A stretch of DNA of 64,000 nucleotides, taken from assembly GCF_030013595.1 (NCBI RefSeq), contig NZ_CP122768.1; one strand, 5' to 3'. The stretch comes from Escherichia coli (GTDB lineage Bacteria; Pseudomonadota; Gammaproteobacteria; Enterobacterales; Enterobacteriaceae). Made by a program: the position numbers and the translations under genes. Each line of letters starts with the position of its first letter. The stretch's first letter is position 1. Below the pieces are notes generated by a model. The model saw only the letters and a list, made by a program, of their open reading frames with translations, had not been told where the DNA came from and made no database searches. Positions 5,668-12,572 of this stretch are shown here, piece after piece.

Positions 5668-6516
5668 ATGAAACTCTTTGCCCAGGGCACTTCACTGGAC
5701 CTTAGCCATCCTCACGTAATGGGGATCCTCAACGTCACGCCTGATTCCTTTTCGGATGGTGGCACGCATAACTCGCTGATAGATGCGGTGAAACATGCGA
5801 ATCTGATGATCAACGCTGGCGCGACGATCATTGACGTTGGTGGCGAGTCCACGCGCCCAGGAGCGGCGGAAGTTAGCGTTGAAGAAGAGTTGCAACGTGT
5901 TATTCCTGTGATTGAGGCAATTGCTCAACGCTTCGAAGTCTGGATCTCGGTCGATACATCCAAACCAGAAGTCATCCGTGAGTCAGCGAAAGTTGGCGCT
6001 CACATTATTAACGATATCCGCTCCCTTTCCGAACCAGGGGCTCTGGAGGCAGCTGCAGAAACCGGTTTACCGGTTTGTCTGATGCATATGCAGGGAAATC
6101 CAAAGACCATGCAGGAAGCCCCGAAGTATGACGATGTCTTTGCGGAAGTGAATCGCTATTTTATTGAGCAAATAGCACGTTGCGAGCAGGCGGGTATCGC
6201 AAAAGAGAAATTGTTGCTCGACCCCGGATTCGGTTTCGGTAAAAATCTCTCCCATAACTATTCATTACTGGCGCGCCTGGCTGAATTTCACCATTTCAAC
6301 CTGCCGCTGTTGGTGGGTATGTCACGAAAATCGATGATTGGGCAGCTGCTGAACGTGGGGCCGTCCGAGCGTCTGAGCGGTAGTCTGGCTTGTGCGGTCA
6401 TTGCCGCTATGCAAGGCGCGCATATCATTCGTGTTCATGACGTCAAAGAAACCGTAGAAGCGATGCGGGTGGTGGAAGCCACTCTGTCTGCAAAGGAAAA
6501 CAAACGCTATGAGTAA
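5668..6516 (+). CDS. folP: Dihydropteroate synthase
   Basis: Start moved to the internal ATG giving [12 protein letters not shown] (282 aa); the ORF-track start at 5602 lies inside the ftsH terminator. Confidence 0.93.
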
Positions 6517-7846
6517 TCGTAAATATTTCGGTACCGATGGGATTCGTGGTCGTGTAGGGGATGCGCCGATCACCCCTGATTTTGTGCTTAAGCTGGGTTG
6601 GGCCGCGGGTAAAGTGCTGGCGCGCCACGGCTCCCGTAAGATCATCATTGGTAAAGACACGCGTATTTCTGGCTATATGCTGGAGTCAGCACTGGAAGCT
6701 GGTCTAGCGGCTGCGGGCCTTTCCGCACTCTTCACTGGTCCGATGCCAACACCGGCCGTGGCTTATCTGACGCGTACCTTCCGCGCAGAGGCCGGCATTG
6801 TGATTTCTGCATCGCATAACCCGTTCTATGATAACGGCATTAAATTCTTCTCTATCGACGGCACCAAACTGCCGGATGCAGTTGAAGAAGCCATCGAAGC
6901 GGAAATGGAAAAAGAGATCAGCTGCGTTGATTCGGCAGAACTGGGTAAAGCCAGCCGTATCGTTGATGCTGCGGGTCGCTATATCGAGTTTTGCAAAGCC
7001 ACGTTCCCAAACGAACTTAGCCTTAGTGAACTGAAGATTGTGGTGGATTGTGCAAACGGTGCGACTTATCACATCGCGCCGAACGTGCTGCGTGAACTGG
7101 GAGCGAACGTTATCGCTATCGGTTGTGAGCCGAACGGTGTAAACATCAATGCCGAAGTGGGGGCTACCGACGTTCGCGCTCTCCAGGCTCGTGTGCTGGC
7201 TGAAAAAGCGGATCTCGGTATTGCCTTCGACGGCGACGGCGATCGCGTGATTATGGTTGACCATGAAGGCAATAAAGTCGATGGCGATCAGATCATGTAT
7301 ATCATCGCGCGTGAAGGTCTTCGTCAGGGCCAGCTGCGTGGTGGCGCTGTGGGAACATTGATGAGCAACATGGGGCTTGAGCTGGCGCTGAAACAGTTAG
7401 GAATTCCATTTGCGCGCGCGAAAGTGGGTGACCGCTACGTACTGGAAAAAATGCAGGAGAAAGGCTGGCGTATCGGTGCAGAGAATTCCGGTCATGTGAT
7501 CCTGCTGGATAAAACCACTACCGGTGACGGCATCGTTGCTGGCTTGCAGGTGCTGGCGGCGATGGCACGTAACCATATGAGCCTGCACGACCTTTGCAGC
7601 GGCATGAAAATGTTCCCGCAGATTCTGGTTAACGTGCGTTACACCGCAGGTAGCGGCGATCCGCTTGAGCATGAGTCAGTTAAAGCCGTGACCGCAGAGG
7701 TTGAAGCTGCGCTGGGCAACCGTGGACGCGTTTTGCTGCGTAAATCTGGCACCGAGCCGTTAATTCGCGTGATGGTAGAAGGTGAAGACGAAGCGCAGGT
7801 AACTGAATTTGCACACCGTATCGCCGATGCAGTAAAAGCCGTTTAA
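6509..7846 (+). CDS. glmM: Phosphoglucosamine mutase
   Basis: 445-aa ORF; active-site region SASHNP; overlaps the folP stop by 8 nt. Confidence 0.95.
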
Positions 7847-8420: not shown

Positions 8421-8507
8421 GCCGAGGTGGTGGAATTGGTAGACACGCTACCTTGAGGTGGTAGTGCCCAATAGGGCTTACGGGTTCAAGTCCCGTCCTC
8501 GGTACCA
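8421..8507 (+). tRNA. leuU: tRNA-Leu (anticodon GAG)
   Basis: gccgaggtggtggaattggtagacacgctaccttGAGgtggtag...gttcaagtcccgtcctcggtacca: long-variable-arm class II tRNA with CCA end, 14 nt downstream of secG. Confidence 0.93.
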
Positions 8508-8516
8508 AATTCCAGA

Positions 8517-8546
8517 AAAGAGACGCTGAAAAGCGTCTTTTTTCGT
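8517..8546 (+). terminator. Rho-independent terminator after tRNA-Leu
   Basis: aaaagagacgct-gaaa-agcgtctttttt. Confidence 0.6.
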
Positions 8547-8965
8547 TTTGGTCCTGGTCTGAGGAATGGTTGTCAGGTATCTGTATCTCGTCCAGTTGCT
8601 TTACTCGTAGCTGGTACTTTGAAACGATGGTGCCGGTACGCCTTAGTTATAAACTTTTCCCTTCTGCTGACATAATTGGCACTTTATTGTGTCAACTCCA
8701 GTTCCGGTACGAATACGGATATGTTTACTTCTCGATAAACCATCCTGCTCCTGTCAGTATAACTACTGATGGCTACGTTCTGCGTAATGTTTAGAGACGC
8801 ATTGATAATGTTATTTAATTACTGAGAACGCAATGGCCGCATCATTTAAAAAGAAAAAACTAACAGTGTTTCGTTCTGATATGGATCAGAGTTGAAAAAC
8901 ATGTCTGATATAAAATTGAACATTGTTGATAATTGTTTATATTGGTTGTGAACTTGGATTTCTGG

Positions 8966-10591
8966 ATGACAGTATTCAACAAATTTGTTAGAAGTTTTAA
9001 ATCTCATTGGTTGTTGTATCTTTGTGTTATTGTTTTTGGTATTACGAACTTAGTCGCCTCTTCCGGAGCGCATATGGTTCAGCGATTGCTGTTCTTCGTT
9101 CTGACCATCCTGGTTGTTAAACGTATATCATCCCTTCCGCTTCGCCTGCTTGTTGCCGCACCATTTGTGTTACTGACAGCGGCAGACATGAGTATTAGCC
9201 TCTATTCATGGTGTACCTTTGGTACAACTTTCAATGATGGATTTGCGATTAGCGTGCTGCAGAGTGATCCGGATGAAGTTGTCAAAATGCTGGGGATGTA
9301 TATCCCTTATCTATGTGCTTTTGCCTTTTTATCCCTTCTTTTTTTGGCAGTAATAATAAAATATGATGTTTCCTTGCCGACGAAAAAAGTGACAGGAATA
9401 TTATTGCTGATTGTCATTTCGGGCAGTTTATTTTCCGCTTGTCAATTTGCTTATAAAGATGCAAAAAATAAAAAAGCGTTCAGTCCATATATACTAGCGT
9501 CGCGATTTGCTACCTATACGCCGTTTTTCAATCTCAATTATTTTGCTTTAGCAGCGAAAGAGCATCAAAGATTACTCTCAATTGCAAACACGGTGCCATA
9601 TTTTCAATTATCAGTCAGGGATACAGGTATTGATACCTACGTGTTGATTGTGGGGGAGTCTGTACGTGTCGACAATATGTCTTTGTATGGATACACACGC
9701 TCTACGACACCGCAAGTCGAAGCACAAAGAAAACAGATCAAACTGTTTAATCAAGCAATAAGCGGTGCACCTTACACTGCGCTGTCGGTTCCCCTTTCTT
9801 TAACTGCTGATTCTGTTTTGAGTCATGACATTCATAATTACCCGGACAACATTATTAATATGGCTAATCAAGCAGGATTTCAGACTTTCTGGCTAAGCTC
9901 GCAATCCGCTTTTCGGCAGAATGGTACAGCAGTTACCAGTATCGCCATGCGCGCCATGGAAACAGTCTATGTCAGAGGATTTGATGAATTGTTGTTGCCG
10001 CATTTATCGCAAGCGTTACAGCAAAAGACGCAGCAAAAGAAACTGATTGTTCTTCATTTAAATGGAAGCCATGAACCGGCTTGTAGCGCCTATCCGCAAT
10101 CCAGCGCCGTGTTTCAACCGCAGGACGATCAGGATGCCTGCTATGACAACTCCATTCATTACACAGATAGTTTGCTAGGTCAGATTTTTGAATTATTAAA
10201 AGATCGCCGCGCCTCGGTCATGTATTTTGCCGACCACGGCCTGGAACGCGACCCTACGAAGAAGAACGTCTATTTTCATGGAGGCAGGGAGGCCAGCCAG
10301 CAGGCATATCATGTCCCGATGTTTATCTGGTATAGCCCCGTTCTTGGGGATGGCGTTGATCGTACAACGGAAAACGATATCTTTTCCACTGCGTACAATA
10401 ATTACCTTATTAATGCGTGGATGGGGGTAACAAAGCCGGAACAGCCGAAAACGCTGGAGGAAGTGATTGCACACTATAAAGGAGACTCACGGGTTGTGGA
10501 TGCAAACCATGATGTTTTCGATTATGTGATGCTCAGAAAGGAGTTTACAGAGGATAAGCAAGGTAACCCCACCCCTGAAGGGCAGGGTTGA
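8966..10591 (+). CDS. yhbX: Inner-membrane sulfatase-superfamily protein, phosphoethanolamine-transferase-like (EptA/EptB/OpgE paralogue family)
   Basis: Hydrophobic N-terminal segments followed by a soluble domain; start placed at MTVFNKF (541 aa) from recalled YhbX; AT-rich codon usage. Confidence 0.85.
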   Translation: MTVFNKFVRSFKSHWLLYLCVIVFGITNLVASSGAHMVQRLLFFVLTILVVKRISSLPLRLLVAAPFVLLTAADMSISLYSWCTFGTTFNDGFAISVLQSDPDEVVKMLGMYIPYLCAFAFLSLLFLAVIIKYDVSLPTKKVTGILLLIVISGSLFSACQFAYKDAKNKKAFSPYILASRFATYTPFFNLNYFALAAKEHQRLLSIANTVPYFQLSVRDTGIDTYVLIVGESVRVDNMSLYGYTRSTTPQVEAQRKQIKLFNQAISGAPYTALSVPLSLTADSVLSHDIHNYPDNIINMANQAGFQTFWLSSQSAFRQNGTAVTSIAMRAMETVYVRGFDELLLPHLSQALQQKTQQKKLIVLHLNGSHEPACSAYPQSSAVFQPQDDQDACYDNSIHYTDSLLGQIFELLKDRRASVMYFADHGLERDPTKKNVYFHGGREASQQAYHVPMFIWYSPVLGDGVDRTTENDIFSTAYNNYLINAWMGVTKPEQPKTLEEVIAHYKGDSRVVDANHDVFDYVMLRKEFTEDKQGNPTPEGQG

Positions 10592-10598
10592 TGTCGAA

Positions 10599-11957
<1,359 letters not shown>

Positions 11958-11992
11958 TTAATTAACTGATGATGAGCCTGGATTTCCGCTCT

Positions 11993-12032
11993 CACTGAAT
12001 TTTTATGCAAAATAAATGAGTTTTCATTTAAT
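11993..12032 (-). promoter_or_regulatory. Tandem ARG-box-like ArgR operator upstream of argG
   Basis: cACTGAATtTTTATgCAaa followed by aaTGAgtTTTcATTtaat, two adjacent 18-bp units resembling the TNTGAAT-(A/T)4-ATTCANW ARG box, 50-90 bp upstream of the argG start. Confidence 0.5.
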
Positions 12033-12289
12033 CATCTTTTATCGGAGACAGGAAGAGTTTAGTGTGTTTTTTGTAAAATAATGCGCTTAAGGGAGAGCAG
12101 GAGAAGGCAAAAGTATTCAACAAATGAAAGTGAACCGGATATTCATTCACGTGATTAGCAATAAACGTTGACAAAATGTGGCATGGATCACTATAATGCC
12201 TGCAGATTTTACGTCCCGTCTCGGTACACCAAATCCCAGCAGTATTTGCATTTTTTACCCAAAACGAGTAGAATTTGCCACGTTTCAGG

Positions 12290-12366
<77 letters not shown>

Positions 12367-12487
12367 CTTTCCCTTAGAGTCCTTTTTCAAATATACTGTG
12401 AAGACTTCGGCCTTCGTAGTGGGATTTGAAAAAATCCTTCTGGAAAGTGCTCCAGACCGCAGTTGCGGTTATAGGGTTCAGTTATAT

Positions 12488-12515
12488 AAAGCCCCGATTT
12501 ATCGGGGTTTTTTGT
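12488..12515 (+). terminator. Partial terminator between metY and rimP
   Basis: aaagccccgatttatcggggtttttt. Confidence 0.55.
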
Positions 12516-12572
12516 TATCTGACTACAGAATAACTGGGCTTTAGGCCCTTTTTTTATGTCTTGGGGGTGGGC

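Follow-up and report, generated by a model that had tools for sequence, protein, structure and literature searches.

The orphan YhbX of Escherichia coli, a phosphoethanolamine-transferase-like protein encoded on a swappable cassette between leuU and argG

Described relatives of YhbX and of its genomic setting

E. coli encodes five full-length membrane phosphoethanolamine transferases of the YhbX type, four of which have assigned targets with a bearing on resistance to polymyxin and antimicrobial peptides, on the charge of the outer membrane and on osmoadaptation, while YhbX is the orphan. Among the four, OpgE (YbiP), which decorates the periplasmic glucans (OPGs), is the best and reciprocal E. 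coli paralogue of YhbX (29% identity over the catalytic domain) and shares with it the length class, the combination of a membrane domain with PF00884 and a stand-alone gene. On the other hand, the two proteins fall into separate clades, most of the membrane domain is without detectable similarity, and opgE is a core-genome gene with 48% GC, unlike yhbX. OpgE alone accounts for the phosphoethanolamine on K-12 OPGs (PMC3818809). EptC (CptA/YijP), whose target is phosphorylated heptose I of the LPS core, is the sole paralogue that aligns nearly over the full length (residues 18-457) and resembles YhbX in its periplasmic domain (TM-score 0.73-0.77), yet the identity is 24%, the clades are separate and the cut-off of the CptA subfamily is not reached. 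EptA/LptA (N. meningitidis, 5FGN) and MCR-1 (9NWW) display the same full-length fold with five helices and a bridging helix as well as an identical catalytic set (E/T/H/D-H/H), but share only 18-21% identity with YhbX, and eptA is linked to basRS/pmrAB whereas yhbX is not.

Outside E. coli, PMI3040 of Proteus mirabilis and its relatives in Providencia, Buttiauxella, Mixta and Microvirgula belong to the YhbX clade (35-46% identity over the full length) and are likewise monocistronic. Unlike yhbX, these genes occupy differing chromosomal locations, none of them adjoining leuU. For PMI3040, its authors stated that no hypothesis on function was possible (PMC4013655). With regard to the genomic setting, the closest counterparts are the tRNA-linked E. 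coli islands at pheV, pheU, selC and leuX, which like the yhbX islet are AT-rich cargo adjoining a tRNA gene and which carry YhbX-like or YjgX transferases. Among the integration sites analysed in one study, such genes were noted at pheU, pheV and selC (PMC6174562), 455 genomes have a 65%-identical paralogue (yhbX2) in integrase-bearing tRNA-Phe islands, with a further occurrence on one plasmid, and K-12 yjgX, whose product is 30% identical to YhbX, lies in the leuX island adjoining intB. By contrast with the tRNA-Phe paralogue island, the yhbX islet lacks both an integrase and an att repeat, and its boundary lies past the tRNA terminator.

A bounded cassette between leuU and argG

We analysed a 64-kb window (64,000 nucleotides of E. 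coli contig NZ_CP122768.1) in which the leuU-argG interval is organised as follows.

8421-8507, + strand: leuU, tRNA-Leu(GAG) (ARAGORN; Rfam tRNA model, 52.8 bits), the conserved left anchor
8515-8544, T-run to 8549, + strand: strong intrinsic terminator of secG-leuU with a 13-bp stem (terminator scan)
8550-8965, + strand: AT-rich leader and promoter region of yhbX, GC about 0.385
8905-8943, + strand: two overlapping candidate sigma-70-like promoters, each matching at 9/12 positions, 23-33 nt 5' of the ATG
8966-10591, + strand: yhbX coding sequence, 541 aa (ORF list; RefSeq annotation)
10592-10598, no strand: 7-nt gap between the yhbX and argG stop codons (TGTCGAA), terminator-free
10599-11942, - strand: argG, the convergent neighbour and right anchor of the locus

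A tRNA-Leu annotation is present at leuU in all E. coli matches, and the ATG at 8966 is the RefSeq start of yhbX. Since the segment begins at 8548, 41 nt past the leuU 3' end, and the ATG lies at 8966, the leader measures 418 nt. This agrees with a previous reading of the sequence alone (the sequence-only reading), which had described an AT-rich leader of some 420 bp plus gene directly 3' of a tRNA gene and 7 bp between the converging stop codons; the count is exactly 7 nt. The GC content is 0.385 for the leader, 0.432 for yhbX (GC3 0.43) and 0.423 for 8548-10591 overall, compared to 0.5085 for the window and 0.50-0.54 (GC3 0.50-0.58) for the genes flanking the segment, and equal AT-richness occurs in just 5.2% of the 2044-nt windows across the 64 kb. 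Membrane-protein composition was rejected as the cause of the low GC content, as the eptA, eptB, eptC and opgE paralogues have 0.48-0.50 GC.

What is new here is that the segment 8550-10597 is a sharply bounded, swappable cassette. The yhbX cassette is present in 5165 of 5426 complete E. coli genomes, while 237 genomes carry an unrelated helix-turn-helix gene (GC 0.37) between identical breakpoints at 8550 and 10597. Base-by-base comparison with this alternative allele (L002) placed the left breakpoint at 8549|8550, 42 nt beyond the tRNA end and 3' of the terminator, because the DNA common to both alleles stops at the last base of the terminator; the right breakpoint was placed at 10597|10598 by the same comparison. 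The gene yhbX is replaced in 4.4% of genomes and disrupted by IS elements in some, and a full-length yhbX ORF is kept in about 95% of the 5426. In an anti-phage defence library YhbX had no match, and the protein of the alternative cassette matched nothing beyond helix-turn-helix entries, and these weakly.

No YhbX homologue follows leuU in 116 other Enterobacterales species among the matches listed, a sample made up of species other than the sister Escherichia (E. albertii, E. fergusonii and E. marmotae), and this distribution relative to the leuU locus had been proposed as a check by the sequence-only reading. In 69 of these 116 loci rimP lies about 350 nt after leuU, with metY about 59 nt past leuU in the three of them that were checked, and in five other loci the argG end lies 149-351 nt beyond leuU. 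Atypical composition and variable presence among strains and species are features that the segment shares with integrase-mediated tRNA-gene islands. We also encountered a seemingly intermediate, 74%-identical homologue (P0157, locus L124), which proved to be an artefact: of the 1456 differences that separate it from the window, 1360 are C-to-T, and its source is therefore a bisulfite-converted E. coli assembly.

The sequence-only reading had called the position a classical integration context while seeing neither an integrase nor a direct repeat. The latter observation was confirmed, since the ORF list contains no integrase-sized ORF within 8548-10591 (the leuU-argG interval holds yhbX and short spurious ORFs only), direct or inverted repeats above chance size are absent from the segment, and the final 24 nt of leuU do not recur in the 64-kb window with up to 3 mismatches allowed. 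As for the integration context, foreign composition and tRNA adjacency hold, but there is no insertion into the tRNA, as the foreign DNA starts after the leuU terminator. Integrase-type insertion at the tRNA was rejected on the same grounds: no integrase, no att repeat and a boundary 3' of the terminator. In the scenario that we propose, a 2.05-kb islet (8550-10597) would have been acquired horizontally without mobility genes, and in the E. coli lineage it would have taken the place of a short ancestral leuU-argG spacer together with the terminator of argG. Its entry was probably through homologous recombination in the conserved flanks and not by integrase action at the tRNA. The two-cassette structure at leuU-argG is a clean natural case of integrase-free cassette exchange, and that the old leuU-metY junction has been invaded repeatedly reinforces this.

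The predicted enzyme and its acceptor

YhbX matches PF00884 (residues 224-466, E 4.1e-56; Pfam), and its best match among PDB sequences is EptC (5zzu, 5e-24), followed by NmEptA (4e-23) and with MCR-1 also among the matches (HMMER). Hydropathy analysis revealed five hydrophobic segments that obey the positive-inside rule, with a K/R-rich, cytoplasmic N-terminus and a conserved E104 in an acidic periplasmic loop, and an AlphaFold2 model (pLDDT 94, pTM 0.92) placed helices at residues 2-31, 34-52, 57-85, 102-131 and 140-169. Pfam PF08019 (EptA_B_N) does not detect the YhbX membrane domain at E<=0.01. In Foldseek comparisons the best full-length matches were EptA (5FGN, TM-score 0.62 over 557 columns) and MCR-1 (9NWW, 0.64 over 553 columns), with target TM-scores of 0.71-0.77 against experimental structures of the EptC, EptA and MCR-1/-2 catalytic domains. 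These results bear out the proposal that YhbX is a membrane-anchored, phosphoethanolamine-transferase-like member of the sulfatase superfamily, with the following parts.

8966-9475, + strand: N-terminal membrane domain with five transmembrane helices (hydropathy, AlphaFold2, fold match)
9635-10363, + strand: periplasmic catalytic domain, aa 224-466, sulfatase/alkaline-phosphatase fold (Pfam PF00884)
9776-9778, + strand: codon of Thr271, the predicted catalytic nucleophile (alignment to NmEptA T280; codon checked)
9656, 10070, 10232-10237 and 10277, + strand: active-site codons of E231, H369, D423 with H424, and H438, respectively (checked)

E231, T271, D423, H424, H369 and H438 of YhbX align with E240, T280, D452, H453, H383 and H465 of NmEptA. 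All except H438 are invariant with E. coli EptA, EptB, EptC and OpgE, and in a set of 82 members of the family E231 and H369 never vary while T271, D423, H424 and H438 are conserved in at least 90%. Loss of the catalytic Thr or of metal-binding residues had been named as what would speak against an enzyme of this family; because the Thr and the metal ligands are intact, all six residues being in place, this objection fails. Judging by these sequence features, YhbX is apparently a working enzyme of the envelope-modifying type. By analogy, we infer a mechanism like that of EptA and MCR-1: with a cytoplasmic N-terminus, five inner-membrane helices and then a periplasmic catalytic domain, YhbX would load Thr271, which sits at a zinc site (E231, D423 and H424, with H369 and H438), with phosphoethanolamine drawn from phosphatidylethanolamine and then hand this group to an acceptor on the periplasmic side.

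Ranked by score, the E. coli paralogues of YhbX are OpgE (124 bits), EptC (110), EptB (99) and EptA (83), and YhbX in turn is the best paralogue match of both OpgE and EptC. A neighbour-joining tree set the YhbX clade apart from EptA, EptB, EptC and OpgE. The designation of YhbX as an EptA-family paralogue thus stands at the superfamily level but not below it, as EptA is the most distant of the E. coli paralogues and OpgE and EptC are the nearest. NCBIfam scores were 142 versus a cut-off of 404 for CptA, 94-123 versus 561-660 for EptA, 103 versus 493 for EptB and 31-71 bits versus 1075-1250 for all MCR models; as all lie far below cut-off, YhbX is orthologous to no characterised enzyme. Outside E. 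coli, identity to the closest named relatives does not exceed 46% (48% for a single 429-aa sequence), and these lie at unrelated loci. The gene neighbourhoods of four relatives correspond to four unrelated contexts with nothing in common, and context is therefore no pointer to the acceptor.

In the literature, yhbX (b3173) appears in strain-construction uses, lists and screens only, with neither a substrate nor phosphoethanolamine transfer reported, so that the claim of no assigned substrate holds for the searchable literature. Its product is named 'putative hydrolase YhbX' in MG1655 RefSeq and likewise 'putative hydrolase' in EcoCyc, and yhbX is in sum a known E. coli gene, ordinary in kind. 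As a whole explanation, we consider it fairly probable that yhbX resides on an imported islet and encodes a live phosphoethanolamine transferase that acts on an envelope glycan and not on lipid A or periplasmic glucans. We place the acceptor most likely among the sugars or sugar-phosphates of such a glycan, for example at a position in the LPS core or on a further conserved glycoconjugate; lipid A phosphates and periplasmic glucans are probably not the target. The order of the paralogues, with OpgE and EptC first, and the separate clade support a glycan over lipid A.

As far as is known, lipid A phosphoethanolamine in K-12 depends on eptA. YhbX is unlikely to be a cryptic, silent lipid A phosphoethanolamine transferase of the EptA/MCR type that would confer polymyxin resistance if expressed: although its fold, topology and catalytic residues are those of EptA and MCR-1, its top-scoring NCBIfam model is a generic lipid A transferase domain (155.6 bits) and its gene, like mcr genes, sits on island-type DNA, EptA scores lowest of the four E. 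coli paralogues, YhbX reaches 40-155 bits versus cut-offs of 500-1250 in every lipid A transferase model, and its clade is apart from EptA and EptB. To our knowledge, every known phosphoethanolamine group of K-12 LPS is already assigned to EptA, EptB or EptC, a point against our main reading, and that no glycan acceptor would be left unassigned there favours a different proposal, namely that YhbX modifies a protein, transfers another head group or acts only as a phosphodiesterase. Enzymes sharing the YhbX fold do such things, as Campylobacter EptC modifies FlgG and Neisseria PptA modifies pilin, and LtaS-type transferases and true sulfatases also appear in the Foldseek list, at lower scores. 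The top structure and sequence matches, however, are all phosphoethanolamine transferases with the same five-helix domain, and YhbX has the conserved Thr271 in place of the formylglycine/Cys-Ser motif that sulfatases use in lieu of Thr, which makes this proposal improbable too.

The reciprocal best match with OpgE and the JGI label 'glucan phosphoethanolaminetransferase' on members of the clade would suit a second OPG phosphoethanolamine transferase, redundant with OpgE or serving other conditions. We regard this as quite improbable, given the low identity to OpgE in the catalytic domain, the separate clades and the finding that K-12 opgE mutants which keep yhbX carry no phosphoethanolamine (+123 Da) species on their OPGs (PMC3818809). 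As the glucans of these mutants lack phosphoethanolamine, YhbX may be silent under laboratory conditions, or its target may be a molecule that has so far escaped examination. That yhbX is a decaying island relic with no current function, and the AT-rich segment tolerated junk, is very doubtful. The gene has neither operon partners nor an assigned phenotype, it is replaced or IS-disrupted in the genomes noted above, a transposon knockout surfaced in an indirect screen only (PMC4551910), and selection is about tenfold more relaxed than on its neighbours (dN/dS 0.12 versus 0.01 for glmM and argG, with the yhbX value computed on six genomes). Nevertheless, this dN/dS is far below 1, yhbX is intact in 6/6 diverse strains and full-length in some 95% of all genomes, its catalytic residues are all in place, and the leader is about threefold less diverse (pairwise diversity 0.017) than yhbX synonymous sites (0.055; 6 strains). 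Returning to YhbX as a live transferase, a catalytically complete protein under purifying selection in about 95% of strains, with clade members on islands and a plasmid, merits the small effort of envelope mass spectrometry and may represent a reservoir of surface-modifying activity.

The yhbX leader and the convergence with argG

Expression of yhbX is probably low and conditional. The two promoter candidates came from a consensus scan that returned no more of them than expected from shuffled sequence. High-affinity H-NS motifs occur in the segment about as often as expected (4 matches versus about 3), so that it is the AT content which would suggest H-NS silencing. A structured or small RNA in the leader found no support (no Rfam match; fold z-score -1.5, equalled by 8/100 shuffles), a Pfam search with a 74-aa leader ORF gave no match, and descent of the leader from the small membrane-protein gene found 5' of the paralogue yhbX2 was rejected since there is no protein or DNA similarity.

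A scan for intrinsic terminators detected none on the + strand from 8550 to 12488 and none on the - strand from the argG stop to 8538. The argG terminator is retained in the alternative helix-turn-helix allele and in other genera and is missing in the yhbX allele, so that the 7-bp convergence arises because the cassette displaced it; the new insertion beside leuU has thus rewired the 3' end of a housekeeping gene. With convergent genes, a 7-nt gap and no terminator between them, yhbX-argG has the arrangement of a convergent excludon, and read-through from argG would reach yhbX, whose promoter region is AT-rich. In a study of 58 MG1655 transcriptomes, argG-yhbX was listed as a convergent excludon, the call being made in no fewer than 50% of them, and overlap of the two transcripts was reported from RNA-seq (PMC12288877).

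We think it rather unlikely that YhbX and its island relatives form a distinct mobile class of surface-decorating enzymes with yhbX being on only when argG is repressed. They would then add phosphoethanolamine to an acceptor so far unrecognised in E. coli, for instance enterobacterial common antigen, an envelope protein or a minor position of the LPS core, and loss of the argG terminator would therefore entail antisense (excludon) coupling of arginine status to envelope charge. In the spacer between yhbX and leuU, a peak has been reported by genomic SELEX (PMC5493296).

Exchangeable DNA between leuU and argG

The window has the gene order of the E. coli chromosome (ftsH-folP-glmM-secG-leuU, yhbX, argG, metY-rimP-nusA), and is 98.3% identical to K-12 derivatives, while a pig isolate matches it at 100% over the query.

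Features of the leuU-argG interval
8421-8507: leuU, tRNA-Leu(GAG)
ending at 8549: terminator 3' of leuU, 13-bp stem and T-run
8966 (ATG)-10591: yhbX, 541 aa, start identical to the RefSeq start
L002:2650-3819 (E. coli O91:H21), opposite strand to yhbX: helix-turn-helix (HTH)-allele cassette, corresponding to window 8550-10597

The sequence-only reading described an AT-rich leader and gene 3' of a tRNA-Leu gene, with no visible integrase or direct repeat and with 7 bp separating the yhbX and argG stop codons. This observation is confirmed in full and its interpretation is sound. The GC content of the leader (418 nt, counted from 8548) is 0.385 and that of yhbX is 0.432 (0.43 at third codon positions), versus 0.5085 for the window and 0.50-0.54 for the neighbouring genes (0.50-0.58 at third codon positions), and just 5.2% of equal-length windows across the 64 kb match the AT-richness of the segment. 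Because K-12 eptA, eptB, eptC and opgE have a GC content of 0.48-0.50, the low value of yhbX is not due to membrane-protein composition. The ORF list contained no integrase-sized ORF in the segment, no repeats of meaningful size were found there, the last 24 nt of leuU had no second copy anywhere in the 64-kb window when up to 3 mismatches were allowed, and the two stop codons lie exactly 7 nt apart.

The flanks were matched in 5425 of 5426 complete E. coli genomes and the yhbX segment was present in 5165, while some genomes without it carry another gene at the site. Base-by-base comparison with the O91:H21 locus L002 revealed identity with the window up to 8549, through the leuU terminator, then unrelated DNA, with identity resuming at 10598, 4 nt beyond the argG stop. 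The alternative filling (1.17 kb, 37% GC) encodes a 317-aa protein whose sole recognisable feature is an N-terminal HTH, and occurs in 237/5426 genomes (4.4%), always between leuU and argG. As the L002 breakpoints flank the segment and the HTH allele always occupies the same place, the segment is, to within a few bases, a natural swappable cassette at 8550-10597. In one genome the HTH cassette is split by IS1. A contig labelled 'MAG: Collinsella sp.' (L097) is contamination by E. coli DNA that carries the HTH allele, and the 'plasmid' records NZ_OL790696.1, NZ_CP134663.1, NZ_CP141089.1 and NZ_MG591698.1 consist of entire E. coli chromosomes or of a 354-kb chromosomal fragment with ftsH-infB.

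Elsewhere in the window, its most AT-rich stretch (57600-61400; yhaB, yhaC, tdcR and tdcA, beside rnpB; GC down to 0.31) is covered to at least 80% in only 4311/5426 genomes and is another variable, probably foreign segment. Closer to the cassette, a perfect (12/12) sigma-70 consensus promoter lies 5' of metY at 12168-12197, and a rimP leader (Rfam RF01770, 102 bits) lies 3' of metY at 12455-12555.

History of the leuU junction and of the argG terminator

The distribution of yhbX relative to leuU, a check proposed with the sequence-only reading, was followed by scanning for the leuU 3' half, which returned at least 120 loci, at least 116 of which come from non-E. coli species. While yhbX occupies this position in E. 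coli, no YhbX homologue lies 3' of leuU in any of the 116 non-E. coli loci listed. Among the loci listed, rimP lies ~350 nt 3' of leuU in at least 69, and metY follows leuU after 58-59 nt in Photorhabdus, Pantoea and Buttiauxella (L004, L013, L112). The arrangement secG-leuU-metY-rimP thus appears to be old, with leuU and metY adjacent ahead of rimP-nusA-infB in most Enterobacterales. In Enterobacter, Kosakonia and Citrobacter, argG lies between the two tRNA genes and ends 149-351 nt from leuU; argG itself is apparently an insertion between leuU and metY in these genera and in Raoultella, Pluralibacter and E. coli (loci L006, L039, L101).

Other genera hold unrelated cargo of their own 3' of leuU: Raoultella and Pluralibacter, for example, have genes for lipoproteins and outer-membrane proteins, Intestinirhabdus has fimbrial-type genes and Brenneria has an IS200-like gene. 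This argues that the leuU flank is a repeatedly invaded junction and yhbX its E. coli-lineage occupant. No integrase was recognised among these cargo ORFs, as judged by N-terminal sequences only. The cargo (L109, L056, L094, L099, L100, L107, L060) mostly encodes surface proteins and includes a 1151-aa secreted-type protein. Since the breakpoint lies beyond both tRNA and terminator and there is no att repeat, we infer that the cassette was more likely exchanged via the conserved flanks than inserted by an integrase.

A GC-rich hairpin with a T-run stands beside the argG stop in the spacers of Kosakonia and Citrobacter and in partial Salmonella sequence. The HTH allele retains such a hairpin (AAAAAAAGGCCGCATTTGCGGCCTTT), whereas the yhbX allele does not. 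The arrival of yhbX therefore probably removed the argG terminator, which would explain the 7-nt convergence of the two genes. Neither the + strand over 8550-12488 nor the - strand between the argG stop and the leuU hairpin matched an intrinsic terminator, and a 2025 study (PMC12288877) counts argG-yhbX among the convergent excludons present in 50% or more of 58 MG1655 transcriptomes, making antisense interference of argG on yhbX plausible.

Constraint on yhbX and its mobile relatives

In six diverse strains the yhbX ORF is intact in all, and its dN/dS of 0.12 indicates purifying selection, roughly tenfold weaker than that acting on glmM and argG (0.01). Together with the low divergence of the leader (0.017 per site), this is consistent with a gene that is functional and a control region under constraint, although six genomes are few. 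Synonymous divergence of yhbX (8966-10591) is 0.055, versus 0.13 for glmM (6509-7846) and 0.10 for argG (10599-11942); this value, about half that of the flanks in six genomes, might reflect a more recent common ancestor of the cassette. Neither an Rfam match nor a significant RNA structure was found in the leader. Two weak sigma-70-like candidates lie 23-33 nt 5' of the yhbX ATG, a number not above chance, and a low genomic SELEX peak is listed in the yhbX-leuU spacer (PMC5493296).

A tblastn search against plasmids retrieved a gene 64% identical to YhbX on E. coli plasmid pRHB40-C01_2 (L125:438-2099; GC 0.44), with homology to yhbX limited to the coding region. Full-length chromosomal copies of this gene (92-100% nucleotide identity) occur in 455/5426 E. 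coli genomes, and a remnant of ~100 nt in ~1450 more; the proteins are 553-557 aa long and 64-65% identical to YhbX. Strain 746 carries an intact copy (L142:9001-10674) amid an integrase fragment, IS elements and restriction genes, while ST131 has a remnant (L143:5898-6128) beside a tyrosine recombinase in a tRNA-Phe-adjacent island. The pheU, pheV and selC integration sites analysed in PMC6174562 contain 'YjgX or YhbX' transferases. From these locations the YhbX clade appears to be genuinely mobile cargo, which supports a foreign origin of the leuU-adjacent copy. A conserved gene for a 65-aa membrane protein lies directly 5' of the island paralogue. K-12 yjgX, a pseudogene in the leuX island next to intB (L144:6406-10792), is just 30% identical to YhbX, and K-12 eptB also neighbours a tRNA gene, ending 91 nt from tRNA-Pro proK (L134:2617-4476).

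Among 1.84 billion representatives YhbX has 7484 relatives, just 121 of them at E≤1e-30. The nearest named ones come from Buttiauxella (46% identity), Mixta (45%), the Neisseriales genus Microvirgula (42-43%), Providencia (36%) and Proteus (35%, PMI3040 group). The genes are monocistronic in four unrelated neighbourhoods, and gene context is therefore uninformative on the acceptor. An apparent diverged homologue (P0157, encoded on L124) was rejected because 1360/1456 differences are C-to-T, revealing a bisulfite-converted E. coli library; this Logan assembly (SRR3359616), once assembled and gene-called, yields spurious 65-80%-identity 'homologues' in protein collections.

The YhbX protein and its possible acceptor

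The long-annotated gene yhbX encodes an orphan member of a well-known enzyme family and sits on a small, apparently imported cassette. The additions made here are incremental: exact cassette boundaries and the alternative allele, the layered leuU-metY junction history with the probable argG terminator loss, and the island-borne paralogue with a clade placement closer to OpgE and EptC. In BLASTP among the five K-12 paralogues, YhbX matched OpgE best (124 bits), followed by EptC (110, nearly full length), EptB (99) and EptA (83), and YhbX was the best paralogue match of both OpgE and EptC. These scores place YhbX probably nearer to OpgE and EptC; in an unbootstrapped neighbour-joining tree it forms its own clade, apart from those of OpgE, EptC and EptA/EptB.

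Pfam recognised only a sulfatase domain (residues 224-466, E 4e-56). All NCBIfam phosphoethanolamine-transferase models matched, always far under their curated cut-offs (CptA 142 versus 404; EptA 94-123 versus 561-660; MCR 31-71 versus at least 1075), so that YhbX is unlikely to be an orthologue of any characterised enzyme. Among solved structures, the sequence matched E. coli EptC best (5e-24), with full-length N. meningitidis EptA next (4e-23). Hydropathy indicated five membrane segments, with K and R enriched at the N-terminus and a first periplasmic loop that is acidic, and the helices of an AlphaFold2 model built from an 82-sequence alignment (pLDDT 94, pTM 0.92) agree. The best structural matches of the model were MCR-1 (9NWW, TM 0.64) and full-length EptA (5FGN, 0.62), with 0.73-0.77 for the EptC periplasmic domain. 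The earlier description as a membrane-anchored, phosphoethanolamine-transferase-like member of the sulfatase superfamily therefore holds.

Loss of the catalytic threonine or metal-binding residues would have spoken against this assignment. All six are in place: E231, T271, H369, D423, H424 and H438 align with EptA E240, T280, H383, D452, H453 and H465, the nucleophile and metal ligands. Five of the six are invariant versus E. coli EptA, EptB, EptC and OpgE, and across the 82 sequences E231 and H369 never vary and each of the others is kept in at least 90%. Fold, topology and catalytic residues are thus shown at the level of sequence and model.

The substrate is unassigned, as the sequence-only reading stated: the searchable literature gives no function for YhbX, which in MG1655 RefSeq is still named 'putative hydrolase', and a 2014 study noted that it had no established function and that none could be proposed for its relative in Proteus (PMC4013655). 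By analogy with the family, YhbX would take phosphoethanolamine from phosphatidylethanolamine via a covalent Thr271 intermediate. As opgE mutants that retain yhbX lose all phosphoethanolamine from their periplasmic glucans (PMC3818809), these glucans are disfavoured as the target in laboratory conditions. Our reasoned guess is that a conditionally expressed YhbX might hand phosphoethanolamine to some glycan at the periplasmic face, rather than to the lipid A phosphates or to OPGs. A yhbX transposon insertion, like hldE, increased a pspA-lacZ readout and is one of five hits discounted by the authors as envelope-permeability effects or because the rpoN locus was restored (PMC4551910); the remaining mentions of yhbX are strain-construction sites, lists and screens.
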